Positions 11,950 through 30,286 of a stretch of 64,000 nucleotides of DNA are shown one piece after another. How positions within the stretch are numbered: the stretch's first letter is position 1; each line of letters starts with the position of its first letter. The translations under genes were made by a program, and so were the position numbers. The notes beneath the pieces are model-generated. The model ran no database searches and was not told the DNA's origin. It worked only from the letters and a program-made list of their open reading frames with translations. The stretch is from Actinomycetota bacterium (lineage in GTDB: Bacteria; Actinomycetota; UBA4738; HRBIN12). The stretch covers positions 18,697 through 82,696 of the forward strand of contig DASTHN010000069.1 in NCBI GenBank assembly GCA_035718185.1. The letters are read 5' to 3'.

Positions 11950-11967
11950 TTGTGAACCGCTTCACAA
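11950..11967. promoter_or_regulatory. Rex operator (ROP), perfect inverted repeat TTGTGAA-CCGC-TTCACAA
   Basis: Read directly: ttgtgaaccgcttcacaa, 25 nt upstream of the GTG of the reductase-nuo operon. A TACCAT -10-like hexamer lies just upstream of it on the minus strand. A rex gene is present in the window. Confidence 0.8.
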
Positions 11968-15804: not shown

Positions 15805-17100
15805 TCACTCGACCGCGACGACCCCGTTCATGTTCGGGTGGATCACGCAGGAGAAGTAGTAGCTGCCCGCCTCGAGCGCCGGGATCTGGTAGTCGGCCTC
15901 ACCCGGGCCCGTGACGAGGTCGCCCTCGAACAGCGTCTGGGTCTTGCTCTCATCCGTCGCGATCGAGATGTTGTGCTGCACCCCGGCGTCCTGGTTCATG
16001 AAGTGGATCGTGGAGGGCTGGCCGGCCGGCAGGGCGATCTCGGCGGTGTCGAAGGCGATCCCCTGCGCGGTCACCGTGGTGGTCGCCCCGCCCCCGGCTT
16101 CGCCGCCGGTCGGCCCGCTGACCGGACCGGTCTGGGGCGGCTGCCCGCCGCCGCCGCCTCCGCCCCCACCGCCGCCGCCCCCGCCGCCGACCACGACGGT
16201 GCCGCTCATGGTCGGATGGACGTCGCAGTGGAAGTAGTACTCGCCCGCCGGCAGCGGCGGGATCTGGTATTCGACCTTCCCCGGACCGGTAACGAGCTCG
16301 CCCTGGAACAGGACCTTGGCCAGCGTGTCGTCCTCGAAGATCGCGATGTTGTGCTGGACGCCGGCGTCGCGATTGTCGAAGACGATCGTCGACGCCGTGT
16401 CCGCGGGCAGCTCGATGGTGTCGGTGTCGAAGGCGATGTTCTGCGCCGCGACCTGGATCGACGGTCCGCCGCCGCCTCCGCCGCCACCGCCACCGCCCTC
16501 GACGGCCTCGATGGTCCCGGTCATGGTCGGATGCACCACGCAGTTGAACGCGTACGTCCCGGGATCGAGCGCGGGCACGTCGTACGTGAACTTCGCCGGG
16601 CCGGTCACCAGGTCACCCTGGAACGTCGGCGTCCCCGAGGGATCCGGTCCCGGGAAGATCTGGACGTTGTGCTGGACGCCGGCGTCCTGGTTGTCCAGGA
16701 CGATCTGGAACGGCTGGCCCGCCGGCACGGTCACGGACGTCGGGTCGAAGGCCAGGTTGACGGCCACGATCGTGATCGCCTGGGACGGGCCTTCTCCCCC
16801 GCCACCCTCCGCGCCGGTCTCGAGCGACGCGACGGCGATGCCGCCGGCCACCATCGCGACGCCGGCGACCGCGCCGACCATCCCCGCGAGGCTGGACATG
16901 CGGACGTACTGCCGGCCCGCGACGACCGCGGAGACCACCACGATCGCGAGCGCCACCAGGAGCGCCGTCGCCGTCGCCGCGTTGTGCGGGATCGCCAGCA
17001 GGATGCGCGAGAACCCGAACAGCACGCCCACGATGATCACGAGGATCCCGACCGGAAGCACGATCGGCAGGACGAGCCGGTCCCGGGTCGACCGCCTCAC
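15805..17100 (-). CDS. membrane-anchored protein with three tandem type-1 copper (cupredoxin) domains joined by poly-Gly linkers
   Basis: Three N-terminal TM helices, then three repeats each carrying GVQHN...C-x2-H-P-x-M (NCVVHPTM, HCDVHPTM, SCVIHPNM). Confidence 0.85.
   Translation of the reverse strand: MRRSTRDRLVLPIVLPVGILVIIVGVLFGFSRILLAIPHNAATATALLVALAIVVVSAVVAGRQYVRMSSLAGMVGAVAGVAMVAGGIAVASLETGAEGGGGEGPSQAITIVAVNLAFDPTSVTVPAGQPFQIVLDNQDAGVQHNVQIFPGPDPSGTPTFQGDLVTGPAKFTYDVPALDPGTYAFNCVVHPTMTGTIEAVEGGGGGGGGGGGPSIQVAAQNIAFDTDTIELPADTASTIVFDNRDAGVQHNIAIFEDDTLAKVLFQGELVTGPGKVEYQIPPLPAGEYYFHCDVHPTMSGTVVVGGGGGGGGGGGGGGGQPPQTGPVSGPTGGEAGGGATTTVTAQGIAFDTAEIALPAGQPSTIHFMNQDAGVQHNISIATDESKTQTLFEGDLVTGPGEADYQIPALEAGSYYFSCVIHPNMNGVVAVE
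16144..16188 (-). repeat. run of 15 consecutive Gly codons (GGN)15, linker 2 of the cupredoxin protein
   Basis: Read directly from the DNA (ccgccgcc... on the plus strand). In frame inside CDS 15805..17100. Confidence 0.9.
16465..16497 (-). repeat. run of 11 consecutive Gly codons, linker 1 of the cupredoxin protein
   Basis: Read directly from the DNA. In frame inside CDS 15805..17100. Confidence 0.9.
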
Positions 17101-25437: not shown

Positions 25438-25443
25438 TATAAT
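25438..25443 (+). promoter_or_regulatory. candidate -10 box, perfect TATAAT
   Basis: ggcTATAATcgc lies 49 nt upstream of the first ATG of the Rieske/cyt b operon. This is a striking AT hexamer in a ~70% GC background. No convincing -35 was found. Confidence 0.4.
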
Positions 25444-25491: not shown

Positions 25492-25863
25492 ATGAGTGAA
25501 CGGCTCCAGCAGGCCAAGCAGCGTGCCGAGTCGTTCGTGCGGGACTTCGAGTGGTCCTGGACGACCGCGGTCGCGGTCTCCATCGGATTCGTGTTCTTCC
25601 TGCTCATCACCGCGGTCGTCATCCCCTCGTTCTGGATGTACTTCGCCGAACAGAAGCTCGGATGGGGCGGGCCGACGGACCTCGAGGCGTTCCTGCAGAG
25701 CCCGATCAGCCAGGAGGGCGCGCTGCAGCTGCGGGACGCCATCGCGATGGGACTCGCCACCGGTCCGATCATCACGGCGATGGTCCTCGCGGTGCTCCTG
25801 CAGAACTGGCGCAAGAAGCTCCGCGGCGGCTCGGCCGACCGGCCGACGGGTGGGTACCGCTGA
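25492..25863 (+). CDS. small 2-TM membrane protein, unknown function (first gene of the Rieske/cyt b operon)
   Basis: ORF track 123 aa. Two hydrophobic helices (AVAVSIGFVFFLLITAVVIPSFW, GPIITAMVLAVLLQNW). GAGG-rich Shine-Dalgarno sequence. Its stop overlaps the ferredoxin ATG (ATGA). Confidence 0.75.
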   Translation: MSERLQQAKQRAESFVRDFEWSWTTAVAVSIGFVFFLLITAVVIPSFWMYFAEQKLGWGGPTDLEAFLQSPISQEGALQLRDAIAMGLATGPIITAMVLAVLLQNWRKKLRGGSADRPTGGYR

Positions 25864-26258
25864 TGCCCTTCACGAAGACCGAGGTCGACGTGCACACCGA
25901 CTACGTGGTCGAGGCGGTGGATGCCGCCTGGCTCGCGCAGGGCGTGCGCTCGCCGAAGCACCTGATGCTCGACCCGGACAACTGCATCCTGTGCCGGGCG
26001 TGTGAGGACGTCTGTCCCTGGAACTGCATCTACATGATGTCGACCGGGATCGTCGAGGGCGCGCGGGACGACGCCGTCGAGGCGGAGGTGGGCAACGCGT
26101 ACGCGGTGTTCGTCGTCGACGACAACGCGTGCACGCGCTGCTCCGTCTGTGTCGATCGCTGCCCCACCGACACGCTGTACTATGCGCGGCTGCCGGAAGA
26201 CGTCGGCGGCCGGCGCACGATGGCCTCCGTGCCGGCCTCGCAGAAGGCCGAGGAGTAG
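25863..26258 (+). CDS. 2x[4Fe-4S] ferredoxin-type protein
   Basis: CILCRACEDVCP and CTRCSVCVDRCP motifs. 131 aa with no TM helix. High GC3. Confidence 0.85.
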   Translation: MPFTKTEVDVHTDYVVEAVDAAWLAQGVRSPKHLMLDPDNCILCRACEDVCPWNCIYMMSTGIVEGARDDAVEAEVGNAYAVFVVDDNACTRCSVCVDRCPTDTLYYARLPEDVGGRRTMASVPASQKAEE

Positions 26259-26285
26259 GACCGAGGGGACGAGGGGAAGAACCGG

Positions 26286-27056
26286 GTGAAGCTGAAGCCG
26301 CCGTCGCCGGGAGCCGTCCTCGACCGCGTCCGCGACACCGAGGTCTGGAAGTCGATCTTCCGGCCCGGCTCGATCTTCCGCAGGGGCTACAAGGACACGT
26401 CCCGGGACCGGGCGCTCTCGACGATGAACAACGTCCTGTACCACCTCCACCCTGTCAAGATGAAGCGGCACGGCCTGAAGCTGACCTACACCTTCTGTCT
26501 GGGTGGCCTCTCGTTCTTCCTGTTCATCCTGCTGACGGTCACCGGCATCTTCCTGATGTTCTTCTACCGCCCGATGGCCGAGCTGGGCTCCGCGCAGGCG
26601 TATACGGACATGCAGAGCATCCGCACGTCCGTGTTCTTCGGCGACCTGGTGCGGAACCTCCACCGGTGGGGGGCTCACCTCATGGTGCTGTCCGTCACGC
26701 TGCATATGGCTCGCGTCTTCTACACGGGCGCCTACAAGCCGCCGCGCGAGTTCAACTGGGTCGTGGGCGTGGTGTTGCTGTTCCTCACCCTCGGCCTGTC
26801 GTTCACCGGCTACCTCCTCCCGTGGGATCAGCTCGCGATCTGGGCCGTGACCGTCGGGACCTCGCTCGGTGGGTACGCGCCGTTCATCGCGAAACAGGCG
26901 AACTTCCTGCTGTTGGGCGGGGTGGTGGTCGGACCGGAGACGCTGCTGCGTTGGTACGTGCTCCACGTCCTCGCGCTGCCGTTCGTGCTCGTGCTCTTCC
27001 TCGCGGTGCACTTCTGGCGGATCCGCAAGGACGGCGGCATCTCCGGACCCCTGTAG
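26286..27056 (+). CDS. qcrB: cytochrome b6-type subunit (N-terminal half of a split cytochrome b)
   Basis: Heme His pairs ([31 protein letters not shown]), PWDQ motif, FCLGG Cys. Ends ...GGISGPL, like plastid/cyanobacterial b6. GTG start. Confidence 0.9.
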
Positions 27057-27073
27057 GCCAGACGAGGAGACAG

Positions 27074-27943
27074 ATGGCGCGCGAGGACACACCGCTCGAC
27101 CAGGAGACGTTCGATCGGACGCTCGAGGCCGAGCTGGCCAAGGGCACCGACCGCCGGGTCGCCGAGGGCCGCGCCCGTTCCGCCGCGGTCCGTGCCCATC
27201 GCGTGATGACCGGAGAGGGCGGGGCACCAGCTCCGGCAGCCGCAGCGCCCGCCGAGCCGGCGGCCGAGACCCCCGCGCCCGCAGCCGCGCCTGCACCTGC
27301 ACCGACACCGACCGCGGCCCCCGCTCCGGCGGCAGCCCCAGCACCGGCCGCGGCCCCCGCTCCGGCGGCTGCCGCGTCGGCGGTCGCCGCGCCGGCGCGG
27401 GAGGCTCCGGCGCCCACGGGGAACGTCCCCGAGCCGAAGCGCGGCGCGCCCGAGAAGCACCGGCTCCTCGCGCTCGTCCCGCCCGAGGGCATCCAGCGCG
27501 TCGAGCGCGAGCAGGGCGATCGGATCAACGTCTGGCCGCACCTGCTGATCGAGGAGTTCATCGCGCTCCTGGTCCTCTCTGCGGGGATGGTGATCTTCGC
27601 GACCTTCGTGAACGCTCCGCTGCGCGAACTCGCCGACCCGAACCTGACGCCGAACCCCTCGAAGGCACCCTGGTACTTCCTCGGCCTGCAGGAGCTCCTC
27701 CGCTACTTCCACCCGATGGTGGCGGGCATCGTCATCCCGACGTTCATCCTCGTGGGCCTGGCGGCGATCCCCTACATCGACCGCAACCCCAGCACGAAGC
27801 CCGGGGATCGCAAGGTCGCGATCACGCTGTTCACGATGCTGTTCATGTTCGGCGCGACCCTGACGATCATCGGATCCTTCTTCCGCGGCACCGGCTACAA
27901 CTGGGTGTGGCCGTGGGCGCAGGGGGTGTTCTTCGAACTATGA
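27074..27943 (+). CDS. subunit IV-type protein (C-terminal half of a split cytochrome b) with a ~150-aa Ala/Pro-rich N-terminal extension
   Basis: APWYFLGLQELLRYF (PEWY-box equivalent) and 3 TM helices. The ATG at 27074 follows GAGGAGAC. Confidence 0.85.
   Translation: MAREDTPLDQETFDRTLEAELAKGTDRRVAEGRARSAAVRAHRVMTGEGGAPAPAAAAPAEPAAETPAPAAAPAPAPTPTAAPAPAAAPAPAAAPAPAAAASAVAAPAREAPAPTGNVPEPKRGAPEKHRLLALVPPEGIQRVEREQGDRINVWPHLLIEEFIALLVLSAGMVIFATFVNAPLRELADPNLTPNPSKAPWYFLGLQELLRYFHPMVAGIVIPTFILVGLAAIPYIDRNPSTKPGDRKVAITLFTMLFMFGATLTIIGSFFRGTGYNWVWPWAQGVFFEL
27224..27418 (+). repeat. low-complexity Ala/Pro-coding tract containing a 22-bp perfect direct repeat
   Basis: CCGCGGCCCCCGCTCCGGCGGC occurs at 27312..27333 and 27348..27369 (36-nt period), encoding (AAPAPA)n. 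Confidence 0.85.
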
Positions 27944-28665
27944 CCCCTGTCCTCGCCGTCTCCAGCGGCGTCATCGCGGCGATCGTGGCCGTGGTGGTGA
28001 TCGACCTGTTCGCGATCGTGTTCGGCCTGTCGTTCGTTCGCGCCCGCCGTGCGGAGCGGGACGCCGAGGCCGGCCTGCCGGTCGCCGAGGTGACGAAGAC
28101 CTCCAAGCCCGTCTCGCGACGTGACTTCTTCCGCCGGTCCCTCGTCGCGTCGCTCCTGGTGTTCGCCGCGCAGTTCGGTGGCATGACGATCGCCTTCCTG
28201 TGGCCCGCCCTGAAGGGCGGCTTCGGCTCGGTCATCAACGCGGGCAAGATCGAGGACATCAAGGCCTCCATCGCGGCCGACGACGAGCCCTACTACTACG
28301 GCGCCGGTCGCTTCTACATCGTGGCGTACCAGGGCAAGGCCGCCGGCGACGTCAACTACGAGGCCGAGGGCGTCGCGGCGCAGGGCATCATGCCGCTGTA
28401 CCAGCGGTGCGTGCACCTTGGATGCCGGGTGCCTTTCTGCAAGCAGTCCCAGTGGTTCGAGTGCCCATGCCACGGATCGAAGTACAACACCGCCGGCGAG
28501 TACACCCTCGGGCCGGCGCCGCGCGGGCTCGACCGGTTCTCCGTCCAGATCACCGATGCCGGCGACGTCATGGTGGACACGTCCGCCGTCATCCTGGGAC
28601 CGCCGCGCGGGACGGACACCCTGCGCAAGCCCCGATCCGGACCCTTCTGCGTGGCGCCGGGCTGA
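27940..28665 (+). CDS. qcrA: Rieske 2Fe-2S subunit
   Basis: CVHLGC and CPCHGS boxes. Twin-arginine-like SRRDFFRRS. ATGA overlap with the upstream gene. Confidence 0.92.
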   Translation: MTPVLAVSSGVIAAIVAVVVIDLFAIVFGLSFVRARRAERDAEAGLPVAEVTKTSKPVSRRDFFRRSLVASLLVFAAQFGGMTIAFLWPALKGGFGSVINAGKIEDIKASIAADDEPYYYGAGRFYIVAYQGKAAGDVNYEAEGVAAQGIMPLYQRCVHLGCRVPFCKQSQWFECPCHGSKYNTAGEYTLGPAPRGLDRFSVQITDAGDVMVDTSAVILGPPRGTDTLRKPRSGPFCVAPG

Positions 28666-29417
28666 TGCTGGCCCTCACCTCCACCCAGGGCATCATCATC
28701 GCCGGCGTCGGCGTCGCGCTCATCATCGTGGGCGGCGCCGTGGTGGCGGCTCGTGGCCGGCGCCGCGTCGAGACACCCGATATCCCGAACGCGATGCGCC
28801 CCGGACCGTCGGATCCCGACCTGGAGACGCCGCTGCTGCAGAAGCTGCAGGGGTGGGGCGTGCTCCTCGTCGTGTTCTTCATGGTGTGGATCCCGGCCAC
28901 CTGGATCTTCGAGCCCGGCCGGAACCTCTCGCAGGAGGAGCGCCTGCTCGAGGACTCGGTCGGACGGGGCGATGCAGCGGTGCAGGCCTTCACCGAGGAG
29001 AACCAGGGCGGCGTCGGGTGCGTCCGCTGCCACGGCAGCGAGCTGAAGGGCGGCCAGATCCTCGGCGCGGCGACGGGCGACGGCGTCCAGCCCGTCATCA
29101 ACACCCCGAACCTCACCACCGTCTGCGGCGGCCCGTTCACCGGGCACCCGCTGATCTATGGGCTGAAGGACATCTACACCACGATCGAGCAGGGCCGGAA
29201 CCTCATGCCCTCGTGGAGCATCAAGTACGCCGGCGCGCTCACCGACCAGCGCATCAACGACATCGTGAACTACATCGTGTCGATCCAGGACGAGACGCAG
29301 GTCCCGTTCGACAAGAACCTCTGTGTCAACCCGGAGGCGCAGACGGCAGCCGTCGACCAGTTCCTCGACGGTGACCTGTCGAAGAAGCCCTCCCCGACCT
29401 CCAACGTCCAGCTGTGA
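28665..29417 (+). CDS. membrane-anchored monoheme cytochrome c
   Basis: N-terminal TM helices, then the heme motif CVRCH. ATGA overlap with the Rieske stop. Confidence 0.85.
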   Translation: MLALTSTQGIIIAGVGVALIIVGGAVVAARGRRRVETPDIPNAMRPGPSDPDLETPLLQKLQGWGVLLVVFFMVWIPATWIFEPGRNLSQEERLLEDSVGRGDAAVQAFTEENQGGVGCVRCHGSELKGGQILGAATGDGVQPVINTPNLTTVCGGPFTGHPLIYGLKDIYTTIEQGRNLMPSWSIKYAGALTDQRINDIVNYIVSIQDETQVPFDKNLCVNPEAQTAAVDQFLDGDLSKKPSPTSNVQL

Positions 29418-30160
29418 TCGCCGCCGACACCTGCCTGGGCTTCGACGTCGCCTGCGACACGCTGGTCAAGGGCGGCCTATCGGTGGTCATGGGGTTCGTC
29501 CTGTTCCTCGGGTCGGTCCTGCTGCTGGTCTCGGCGGTGTTCGGGCGCAGGATGGGGTACCTGGTGGTCGCGACGGCGTTCTTCGGGTGGATGCTCCTGC
29601 TCTCGGCGCTGTGGACGTTCGGTTTCTGGTCCCAGGGCACCGAGACGCCGACGAACCTCGGACCGCGCGGCGTCGAGCCCGCGTGGGTCGTCGAGGCTGC
29701 CGGCACACAGCCCGAGGCGCCGACCGAGGTGTTCTCGACGTACCCCGACCCTCCCGAGTGGCGGGAGCCGGGGACGAACGAGGCCGACAGCAGCTCCGTG
29801 CAGTCGGTGCAGGGCGCCGTGCAGTCATACCTGGCGCACCAGTTCAACGAGGAGCAGGGGCTCACCGAGTTCGCGCCGGGCGCGGCGCAGACGACCGACT
29901 TCACGGTGCAGGAGATCCGATTCGCGACCGATGGGGATGCGTCGCTCGCCGGGGCCGAGGCCTTCTACAACGGCGGCGGGCCCGTGCTCACCGTCTACCT
30001 CCGGCACGACAGCGGCAGCGTGCCGGTGTACTCATGGTTGTTCATGATCGGGTCGGCGATCGGCCTTGCGGTCCATCTGCCGCTGCTCGACCGCGCCGAG
30101 CGCAAACGCAAGGACGTCCTGACCGGCGGCACCCCGCCGCCCTGGTACGGACCCGCCTAG
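29414..30160 (+). CDS. integral membrane protein of unknown function, operon member
   Basis: ORF track 248 aa. The GTG start overlaps the upstream stop. About 3 TM helices flank a soluble acidic domain. Confidence 0.75.
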   Translation: MIAADTCLGFDVACDTLVKGGLSVVMGFVLFLGSVLLLVSAVFGRRMGYLVVATAFFGWMLLLSALWTFGFWSQGTETPTNLGPRGVEPAWVVEAAGTQPEAPTEVFSTYPDPPEWREPGTNEADSSSVQSVQGAVQSYLAHQFNEEQGLTEFAPGAAQTTDFTVQEIRFATDGDASLAGAEAFYNGGGPVLTVYLRHDSGSVPVYSWLFMIGSAIGLAVHLPLLDRAERKRKDVLTGGTPPPWYGPA

Positions 30161-30166
30161 GAGGAG

Positions 30167-30286
30167 ATGGACGTGCTGGCCGAGACCGTCGTTCCGCTCA
30201 TCGAAGAGGGCAGCGTCCAGTGGATCCTGTTCAGCGTGATGGTGATCGCCGTCTTCATCACGCTGTGGATCACGATCGCCCGCTGA
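30167..30286 (+). CDS. 39-aa single-TM micro-protein (MDVLAETVVPLIEEGSVQWILFSVMVIAVFITLWITIAR)
   Basis: Below the ORF-track size cut-off and found by eye. GGAGGAG sits immediately before the ATG, 6 nt after the upstream stop. Strong GC3 bias. Confidence 0.6.
   Translation: MDVLAETVVPLIEEGSVQWILFSVMVIAVFITLWITIAR

Follow-up and report, generated by a model that had tools for sequence, protein, structure and literature searches.

The stretch of DNA analyzed here (hereafter the window) comprises 64,000 nucleotides of contig DASTHN010000069.1 (assembly GCA_035718185.1) of an Actinomycetota bacterium, with a G+C content of about 70%. At 25492‒30286 on its plus strand lie eight open reading frames (ORFs), each with the high third-position G+C typical of genes in this DNA, and they encode a Rieske/cytochrome b6-type set of proteins that includes a small dicluster ferredoxin. 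The first gene, g1 (25492‒25863), encodes a 123-residue protein with two transmembrane helices according to the ORF list and hydropathy. It is followed by fdx (25863‒26258), which encodes a soluble 2x[4Fe-4S] ferredoxin of 131 residues (Pfam Fer4) with no transmembrane helix and two CxxCxxCxxxCP motifs. Cytochrome b6 (26286‒27056, GTG start) has 256 residues and four transmembrane helices (Pfam Cytochrome_B, expectation value (E) 6e-42), and subunit IV (27074‒27943) has 289 residues and three transmembrane helices (Pfam Cytochrom_B_C). The Rieske [2Fe-2S] protein (27940‒28665, 241 residues, Pfam Rieske) has the b6f-type Rieske as its best NCBIfam match, and the next gene (28665‒29417) encodes a class I cytochrome c of 250 residues, recognized by Pfam, with one CxxCH motif (CVRCH) and two N-terminal transmembrane helices. 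The last two genes are g7 (29414‒30160; 248 residues, three transmembrane helices) and g8 (30167‒30286; 39 residues, one transmembrane helix), the latter with GGAGGAG just before its start.

The genes are tightly coupled. Four junctions overlap, by 1 nucleotide (nt) at g1/fdx and Rieske/cytochrome c, by ATGA at subunit IV/Rieske, and by GTGA at cytochrome c/g7, and the remaining three intergenic gaps are 27, 17, and 6 nt. A previous description made from the letters and the ORF list (hereafter the sequence-only reading) had proposed eight coupled plus-strand genes with ATGA/GTGA overlaps that form a Rieske/b6-type complex III operon. All of these ORFs were found in place, and the profile searches it had suggested for the eight proteins agree with the class of complex, since five proteins were assigned to the families Fer4, Cytochrome_B, Cytochrom_B_C, Rieske, and cytochrome c. 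It had also counted four uncharacterized membrane proteins; g1, g7, and g8 are indeed without a family, with zero matches in the Pfam (E < 0.1) and NCBIfam profile searches, but they are three genes, not four.

Alignment to solved b6 structures showed that the window b6 keeps the four His heme ligands (both pairs) and the C-terminal GISGPL sequence, and that its Cys71 (FC71LGG) aligns with Cys35 of 1q90 (FYC35IGG), the cysteine of heme ci/cn. The CxGG motif is invariant in 75 b6 sequences. The protein also has a basic N-terminal extension of about 45‒66 residues, predicted to lie on the cytoplasmic side, with a net charge of +10. In subunit IV, the Qo motif is APWY (SKAPWYF) where PetD structures have PEWY, and APWY is found in all clades compared here (see below). 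Its N-terminus consists of a charged segment of about 45 residues and then a long Ala/Pro-rich low-complexity linker (about 27200‒27480), and because of this Ala/Pro-rich region the length of subunit IV varies from 181 to 311 residues between clades. Repeated ‘IP.HLL.RS..RR’ motifs were observed in the subunit IV N-terminus of Acidimicrobiia. The Rieske protein has an extra N-terminal transmembrane helix, a twin-arginine anchor (SRRDFFRR), and the cluster boxes CVHLGC...CPCHGSKY. Its S-Y signature is invariant in the clade of the window and present in all clades, and a published two-residue rule predicts from this signature a potential above 260 mV. The cytochrome c is membrane-anchored, and the cytoplasmic loop that joins its two transmembrane helices is conserved; it is monoheme in the window clade, and its orthologue is diheme in the four other clades with an fdx-type operon.

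No solved structure is closer to the window b6 than chloroplast or cyanobacterial b6. An APWY clade of split cytochromes b, with proteins from Rubrobacteridae and one Acidimicrobidae strain and no characterized member, has been described (Kao & Hunte, PMC4122944), and it equals subfamily G of Dibrova et al. (PMC5600118). The APWY Qo motif is without the usual acidic residue and marks a mechanistically distinct lineage (PMC4122944). Judged by its APWY, CLGG, and S-Y (Mid+ to high-potential) motifs, the window b6 is a member of this APWY clade/subfamily G. The split into b6 and subunit IV had been regarded as unusual for actinobacteria in the sequence-only reading; this point has to be withdrawn, since the split form is already known in deep-branching Actinobacteria as the APWY clade (PMC4122944).

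The window operon was compared with several known complexes. Like the cyanobacterial and chloroplast b6f complexes, it has split b6 and subunit IV, the four His ligands, a Cys35 equivalent, GISGPL, and CPCHGSxY, and small single-transmembrane subunits occur in both. On the other hand, b6f has PEWY and cytochrome f where the window has APWY and a class I cytochrome c, its small subunits PetG/L/M/N show no homology to the window proteins, and the quinone of the window complex is, unlike that of b6f, presumably menaquinone. Ferredoxin/FNR has long been proposed to feed heme cn of b6f in cyclic electron flow; there, however, ferredoxin is at most a transient partner, whereas it is encoded in the operon of the window. 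The Bacillus/Firmicutes QcrABC is likewise a Gram-positive b6-type complex with the heme ci cysteine, a membrane-bound cytochrome c, and a caa3 oxidase with a cytochrome c fused to its subunit II. It differs from the window in its gene order (Rieske, b6, and a subunit IV::cytochrome c fusion, where the window has separate subunit IV and cytochrome c), in combining PDWY with a low-potential Rieske protein instead of APWY with S-Y, and in being without ferredoxin, g1, and g7.

The QcrCAB complex of Mycobacterium/Corynebacterium belongs to the same phylum and shares menaquinol oxidation, cta neighbors, the absence of a soluble cytochrome c, and a multi-transmembrane Rieske protein with the window; its QcrC is diheme, as is the cytochrome c in sister clades of the window operon. 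However, QcrCAB has a long unsplit QcrB without the heme ci cysteine, the order qcrC-A-B, a different evolutionary origin, and no cytoplasmic-side Fe-S subunit, and the NCBIfam model bc1_QcrB_actin scored the window cytochrome b at 110.8 bits against a cutoff of 500. The ExtOPQ proteins of Geobacter (extHIJKLMNOPQS) include a cytochrome b closely related to the window b6, and ExtQ is related to subunit IV. The window b6 scored 287.4 bits on the ExtP model (cutoff 290), the nearest curated model, and the score for ExtQ was 59.2 bits (cutoff 150). The Ext cluster contains multiheme cytochromes, a porin, and a rhodanese but no ferredoxin, and such a context is absent from the window. Membership in the Ext system was ruled out by these model cutoffs and the gene context.

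Conservation of the operon was assessed by a scan with one genome per species, which yielded 198 loci, and the best 80 were analyzed. All 80 are metagenome-assembled genomes (MAGs) of uncultured Actinomycetota, one of them labelled Solirubrobacterales. Since the eight genes keep their order in every one of these species-level genomes whose contig reaches far enough, the arrangement is far beyond chance; ccdA lies upstream and rex downstream wherever the contig extends. Mean column conservation is highest for b6 (0.93), followed by the ferredoxin (0.86), subunit IV (0.80), the Rieske protein (0.74), g7 and g8 (both 0.68), and cytochrome c and g1 (both 0.66). The ferredoxin is thus the second most conserved protein of the set and exceeds the catalytic Rieske protein and cytochrome c.

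The core g1-fdx-b6-subunit IV-Rieske-cytochrome c-g7 recurs in four further clades, in which the ferredoxin is about 36‒49% identical to that of the window, and this core is the conserved unit across the five clades. In the Acidimicrobiia locus L082, the order is a 154-residue membrane protein, ferredoxin, b6, subunit IV, Rieske protein, diheme cytochrome c, and proteins of 265 and 71 residues. In the P0146 clade from soil metagenomes, b6 follows fdx in 14 of the 14 contigs that are long enough, and the complete core is visible in the longest ones. The P0137 and P0128 clades have the same layout, P0137 again with rex downstream. Profile hidden Markov models (HMMs) of g1 and g7 detected the corresponding genes in the four other clades, upstream of fdx (E 6.5e-15 to 2e-4) and downstream of the core (E 1e-25 to 3.5e-12), respectively. 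No loss of fdx was seen among about 100 loci. In sequence databases, the window-type ferredoxin clade comprises 1034 clusters and the Acidimicrobiia clade 2116. The sequence-only reading would have been weakened if the ferredoxin and membrane genes were not conserved beside the b6/Rieske set; the neighborhood survey instead found fdx, g1, and g7 next to this set in five divergent clades, and for this reason they are not hitch-hikers.

The ferredoxin itself is acidic (isoelectric point 4.4, net charge −11), with a conserved 35-residue N-terminal extension and a 38-residue insert between the two cluster motifs. All eight Cys ligands of the clusters are conserved across clades. Across the 80 genomes the identity is 79‒94%, and conservation includes the N-terminal extension, which is not part of the cluster motifs, and the C-terminal region. 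The family is compact, with 78 representatives at 50% clustering (E < 1e-10), and divergent full-length groups within it share the N-terminal extension and the inter-motif insert. Hydropathy and signal analysis revealed no transmembrane helix and no twin-arginine or other export signal. Since, in addition, a homologous domain is found in an NAD(P) enzyme (see below), the ferredoxin is likely to be cytoplasmic.

Besides the eight ligands, a ninth cysteine at residue 55 (CPWNC55) is nearly invariant across all fdx clades. A second copy of the 414-bp fdx gene (99.8% identical) was observed in the Acidimicrobiia MAG GCA_027494165.1, on another contig and in an unrelated context (L081, 7999‒8412). 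The identity stops almost exactly at the gene ends; the copy stems either from a true duplication or from an error of assembly or binning. Longer database proteins that resembled natural fusions of the ferredoxin with g1 or b6 (P0123, P0125, P0138, P0170, P0201, and others) proved to be frameshifted translations of high-GC DNA and were rejected.

Two of the three family-less membrane proteins are linked to the ferredoxin by their distribution. g1 lies upstream of fdx in 79 of 79 usable loci, and in an HMM search of the compared loci g1 and g7 were found only with the small ferredoxin; neither model matched in loci with the large oxidoreductase described below. g1 has a basic cytoplasmic C-terminal tail (net charge +5) that ends in GGYR, contains no Cys or His, and shares the tail motif GGY[RK] with two other clades. 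The 1-nt overlap of its stop codon with the fdx start, together with its restriction to operons with the small ferredoxin, makes g1 a candidate membrane tether of the ferredoxin.

An AlphaFold2 model of g7, of moderate confidence (predicted local distance difference test score (pLDDT) 77), shows a transmembrane hairpin and a C-terminal transmembrane helix, with a sheet of four strands and a long helix on the extracytoplasmic side; this extracytoplasmic α/β domain has about 130 residues, and the basic tail is conserved. Foldseek found no match for this fold in the PDB below E = 0.09 (best match E 0.09, template-modelling score 0.14), all 120 homologues among the matches listed are annotated as ‘hypothetical’, and g7 has no recognizable cofactor motif. 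Cys7 and Cys14 at the extracytoplasmic N-terminus and His198 are invariant, and His221 in the last transmembrane helix is nearly so; a disulfide or ligand site is conceivable at these residues. g8 is restricted to the window clade, with no homologue detected in other clades. Its 47 orthologues show a coding pattern, in which the third codon position is more variable than the first and the first more than the second, and 42 of the 47 have a Shine-Dalgarno-like sequence. Identity of g1, g7, or g8 with heme ci maturation (CCB) proteins or with Pet small subunits was rejected, as no Pfam match was obtained at E < 0.1.

Outside its own family, the nearest relatives of the ferredoxin by single-domain score are the C-terminal dicluster domains of GltD-like proteins of 555‒616 residues (44‒61 bits); polyferredoxin domains match clearly lower, at ≤34 bits. 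These large proteins consist of Fer4_20, an FAD/NAD(P) (FAD, flavin adenine dinucleotide) module (Pyr_redox_2), and the 2x[4Fe-4S] dicluster domain. Five of the six examined oxidoreductases sit in Rieske/cytochrome b clusters. In L099 (Candidatus Limnocylindrales, Chloroflexota) and L100, the 616-residue gene lies directly upstream of b6, subunit IV, Rieske protein, and cytochrome c, which is the slot of fdx. The L099 b6 is 63% identical to the window b6, and both loci have CLGG, APWY, and an S-Y Rieske protein. The conserved basic b6 N-terminal extension is common to the window and L099/L100, whereas cyanobacterial b6 is without it. Within this extension (26286‒26480), a six-residue insert, SIFRPG, was observed in fdx-type operons and not in the b6 of L099/L100; it may be a determinant of partner choice. 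The sixth oxidoreductase (L103, 7001‒9094), a 697-residue protein with rubredoxin, GltD-like, and dicluster parts, adjoins SUF Fe-S assembly genes and no cytochrome b, so that not all members of this protein class belong to Rieske/cytochrome b complexes.

In the literature, the short cytochromes b in subfamily G occur alongside large NAD(P)/Fe-S oxidoreductases, for example in anammox bacteria. The complexes of Kuenenia stuttgartiensis (Kuste4569-4574 and Kustd1480-1485) and those of L099/L100 belong to the same b6 lineage as the window (CxGG, APWY, S-Y Rieske), and they share with it a gene for a cytoplasmic Fe-S protein beside the b6 genes, a C-terminal dicluster domain homologous to the ferredoxin (37.5% identity over 80 residues, E 3e-15), and the conserved b6 N-terminal extension. 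In AlphaFold3 models of the anammox complexes, the space between heme cN and FAD is occupied by four Fe-S clusters (PMC12954380). In contrast, the window ferredoxin is a two-cluster module alone, without FAD/NAD(P), Fer4_20, or the four-cluster set, and g1 and g7 are additional and tied to this small form. The electron acceptors differ as well: a simple mono- or diheme cytochrome c beside an aa3-type oxidase in the window type, and multiheme or HAO-type proteins in anammox bacteria.

The proposal of an undescribed variant of a respiratory complex in the sequence-only reading therefore needs to be divided. An n-side Fe-S partner for this b6 lineage is already known as a concept, with its precedent in anammox-type subfamily G. 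On the other hand, an aerobic complex III of Actinomycetota in which the Fe-S partner is a ferredoxin alone, without flavin and with accessory subunits of its own, appears to be undescribed: in the full-text searches and phylogenomic papers covered, no small ferredoxin and no g1 or g7 was found in these operons, although key reviews may contain an earlier mention. The small-ferredoxin complex is certainly uncharacterized.

The operon sits in a respiratory gene island, as seen from the ccdA/res, cta, nuo, and rex genes around it. Upstream and divergent lie ccdA, resB, and resC for cytochrome c maturation, beyond them ctaC, ctaD, and ctaE, and further upstream the nuo genes. In Actinomycetia, qcrCAB is kept next to the cta genes, at roughly the place that the operon takes in the window. 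CtaC (20815‒21969, minus strand) is a COX2 protein with a C-terminal cytochrome c domain, and because of this fused domain the neighboring oxidase is of the caa3 type; the fused cytochrome c fits the monoheme cytochrome c of the window clade, versus the diheme proteins of the sister clades. On the minus strand at 15805‒17100, we also observed a gene for a 431-residue protein with three cupredoxin-like stretches and a plastocyanin/azurin-type domain, adjoining a ResA-like thioredoxin gene (15259‒15774, minus strand). This protein may carry electrons as a copper-based alternative, or it may handle copper for the oxidase.

Downstream of the operon and convergent with it is rex (30296‒31024, minus strand), the gene for a redox-sensing repressor (Pfam Put_DNA-bind_N and CoA_binding), and a gene for a glutaredoxin-like DUF836 protein (31044‒31280, minus strand) lies directly downstream of rex on the same strand. 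In the ccdA/g1 intergenic region, about 100 nt upstream of g1, lies a predicted Rex operator, TCGTGAACGCCTTCACAA (25375‒25392), a ROP-like palindrome with one mismatch to TTGTGAA-N4-TTCACAA. Three such sites were found in the window versus 0.01 expected. In 65 of the 79 related genomes, an equivalent site lies upstream of g1 at a distance of 81‒221 nt, and the 1.14 Mb covered by these loci contain no other one; such a site occurs in the P0146 clade, too. The conserved operator and the adjacent rex gene indicate NADH/NAD+-responsive control of the operon, with the rex product as the likely regulator.

The other two sites of the window are a perfect operator, TTGTGAACCGCTTCACAA, at 11950‒11967, just upstream (minus strand) of a geranylgeranyl-reductase/MenJ-like gene (10669‒11925) that precedes nuoA/nuoB, and a weaker site at 1766‒1783. 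With Rex sites beside both, the complex I (nuo) genes and the b6 operon seem to be jointly regulated by Rex. A TATAAT sequence at 25438‒25443 (plus strand), 49 nt upstream of the g1 start, is a possible but weak −10 hexamer read from the letters; it has no −35 match, and the consensus scan called no promoter there. Inside the operon, the same type of scan for promoters and terminators found nothing above background, which is weakly compatible with a single transcript.

On these grounds, the operon very probably encodes a functional complex III, and we propose that it is a b6c-type menaquinol:cytochrome c oxidoreductase of the APWY/subfamily G lineage. Quinol would be oxidized at a Qo site to which b6, subunit IV with its APWY motif, and the high-potential-type Rieske protein contribute. 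One electron would pass to the membrane-anchored cytochrome c and on to the neighboring caa3 oxidase, and the other through hemes bL and bH to a covalently bound heme ci. The ferredoxin is probably a bound subunit on the cytoplasmic side: it would be permanently attached to the n side rather than act as a free carrier, held by the b6 N-terminal extension and g1, and would correspond, as a separate protein, to the dicluster domain that lies next to the membrane in the FAD/NAD(P) oxidoreductase. The opposite charges of the ferredoxin (−11) and of the b6 extension (+10) and g1 tail (+5) argue for such stable binding, as do the unusually conserved cytoplasmic segments of several subunits. Its two [4Fe-4S] clusters would then serve as a wire between the cytoplasmic surface and the quinone reduction site at heme bH/ci. 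g7 would be a conserved accessory subunit, g8 a clade-specific small subunit, and expression would be under the control of Rex (NADH/NAD+). For the whole of this proposal, a menaquinol:cytochrome c oxidoreductase with a bound ferredoxin wire to heme bH/ci, we see the chances as evenly balanced.

Several points limit the proposed bound wire or weigh against it. A Rosetta-stone search found no natural fusion of the ferredoxin with g1 or b6. An AlphaFold2 model of a ferredoxin-linker-b6 fusion, with the b6 part modelled without an alignment, was uninformative (pLDDT 57.7, predicted template-modelling score 0.32). Across 33 genomes, no specific rate covariation of ferredoxin and b6 was detected relative to control genes, in what is a crude comparison with few substitutions. 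Heme ci on the CLGG cysteine is, for the APWY lineage, a prediction from the motif. No GltD-like sequence or flavoprotein partner is encoded anywhere in the window. Finally, the S-Y Rieske protein and the presumed menaquinone would set the b-heme chain at low potential, which favors outward over inward electron flow.

Alternatively, the ferredoxin might not be a subunit, but a co-transcribed soluble ferredoxin or biogenesis factor, acting for example in heme ci attachment, in Rieske cluster assembly, or in another pathway, with g1, g7, and g8 as assembly factors. Neither the fusion model nor the rate covariation gave a ferredoxin-b6 binding signal. The protein is small, acidic, and soluble like free ferredoxins, the adjacent cytochrome c maturation genes show that the locus mixes structural and biogenesis genes, and an isolated second fdx copy exists in one Acidimicrobiia MAG. 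However, the conservation of the ferredoxin above that of the Rieske protein and cytochrome c, which extends over non-cluster regions, and its fixed position directly upstream of b6 in five clades speak against a role apart from the complex. Furthermore, the equivalent slot in L099/L100 is filled by a redox enzyme with a homologous C-terminal domain, which suggests a partner in electron transfer and not a chaperone, and g1 and g7 match no Pfam family, the known heme ci maturation (CCB) families included. We therefore consider this alternative improbable.

The absence of both the flavin/NAD(P) part of the relatives and any partner encoded nearby also raises the question of whether a bound ferredoxin would carry a through-flux at all. 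It could be a structural remnant of a lost flavoprotein arm, or it could act, in equilibrium with heme ci, as a redox buffer, safety valve, or sensor and thereby limit the formation of semiquinone and reactive oxygen species or gate the activity of the complex; the link of the operon to a redox-sensing regulator would suit such a role. Yet the eight ligands and the surface regions are strongly constrained across about 60% sequence divergence, the dedicated partners g1 and g7 have co-evolved with the small form, and a vestige would be expected to decay or vanish in some lineages, which was seen in none of the loci compared. A ferredoxin without through-flux thus seems quite improbable.

If the ferredoxin is a wire, as proposed above, electrons may pass through it in either direction. 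Inward flow is somewhat favored, because it is thermodynamically downhill and matches the role proposed for ferredoxin at b6f; as a claim of its own it is tentative, and we place it below an even chance. In this case, reduced ferredoxin or a detachable flavoprotein would donate electrons to the clusters and through them to menaquinone at the Qi site, and the complex would combine the functions of a complex III and of a ferredoxin-level:menaquinone reductase. The ferredoxin-linked quinone/quinol reaction put forward in the sequence-only reading is plausible.

Outward flow would instead be driven by bifurcation. The oxidation of menaquinol by the high-potential Rieske protein, cytochrome c, and O2 would push the second electron through the low-potential b hemes and heme ci onto the clusters, so that ferredoxin-level reductant is made in the cytoplasm, much as anammox bacteria have been proposed to produce NAD(P)H, but here without a flavin. 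Actinomycetota use menaquinone, and the S-Y signature predicts a Rieske potential above 260 mV, although the two-residue prediction is rough. For the anammox complexes, the combination of a high-potential Rieske protein and menaquinone has been argued to imply a heme bP near −475 mV, which permits the reduction of the n-side Fe-S chain (PMC12954380); this mechanism, however, is itself unproven. Further points in favor of outward flow are that the ferredoxin is homologous to, and encoded in the gene slot of, the Fe-S arm in anammox-type complexes, and that the APWY motif, without the usual acidic Qo residue, marks a mechanistically distinct lineage. On the other hand, the genomes look like those of aerobic heterotrophs, with nuo and caa3 genes adjacent and no obvious need for low-potential reductant, and the diversion of the low-potential electron gives up the proton yield of the Q cycle. 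Overall, we regard outward flow as unlikely. That aerobic Actinomycetota (Acidimicrobiia and the soil clade of the window) run an electron-bifurcating menaquinol:cytochrome c/ferredoxin oxidoreductase as their complex III is likewise doubtful; if true, the respiratory chain itself would make ferredoxin-level reductant, in a minimal flavin-free form of the mechanism hypothesized for anammox.

Rieske/cytochrome b complexes count among the best-understood energy converters, and their n side is normally thought to handle quinone only. It is a long-standing question what heme ci is for and whether ferredoxin feeds it, as proposed for cyclic flow in b6f, and likewise whether electrons can pass between a Rieske/cytochrome b complex and carriers in the cytoplasm, as has been suggested for anammox bacteria. 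In the operon described here, a minimal two-cluster ferredoxin is genetically tied to a b6 of the heme ci type and to two dedicated membrane proteins, and its carriers are soil and aquatic Actinomycetota represented by thousands of sequence clusters. Database entries for fdx, g1, and g7 carry labels that are unspecific or incorrect (‘NuoI’, ‘PreA subunit’, ‘4Fe-4S binding protein’, or ‘hypothetical’), so that these genes are overlooked when the metabolism of such abundant bacteria is reconstructed. The small form hints at the evolutionary relationship between the large NAD(P)-linked complexes and the simple ones, and, if a cultivable carrier is found, the lineage may offer a simple experimental system in which the host is aerobic, the subunit is small, and a flavoprotein is absent.

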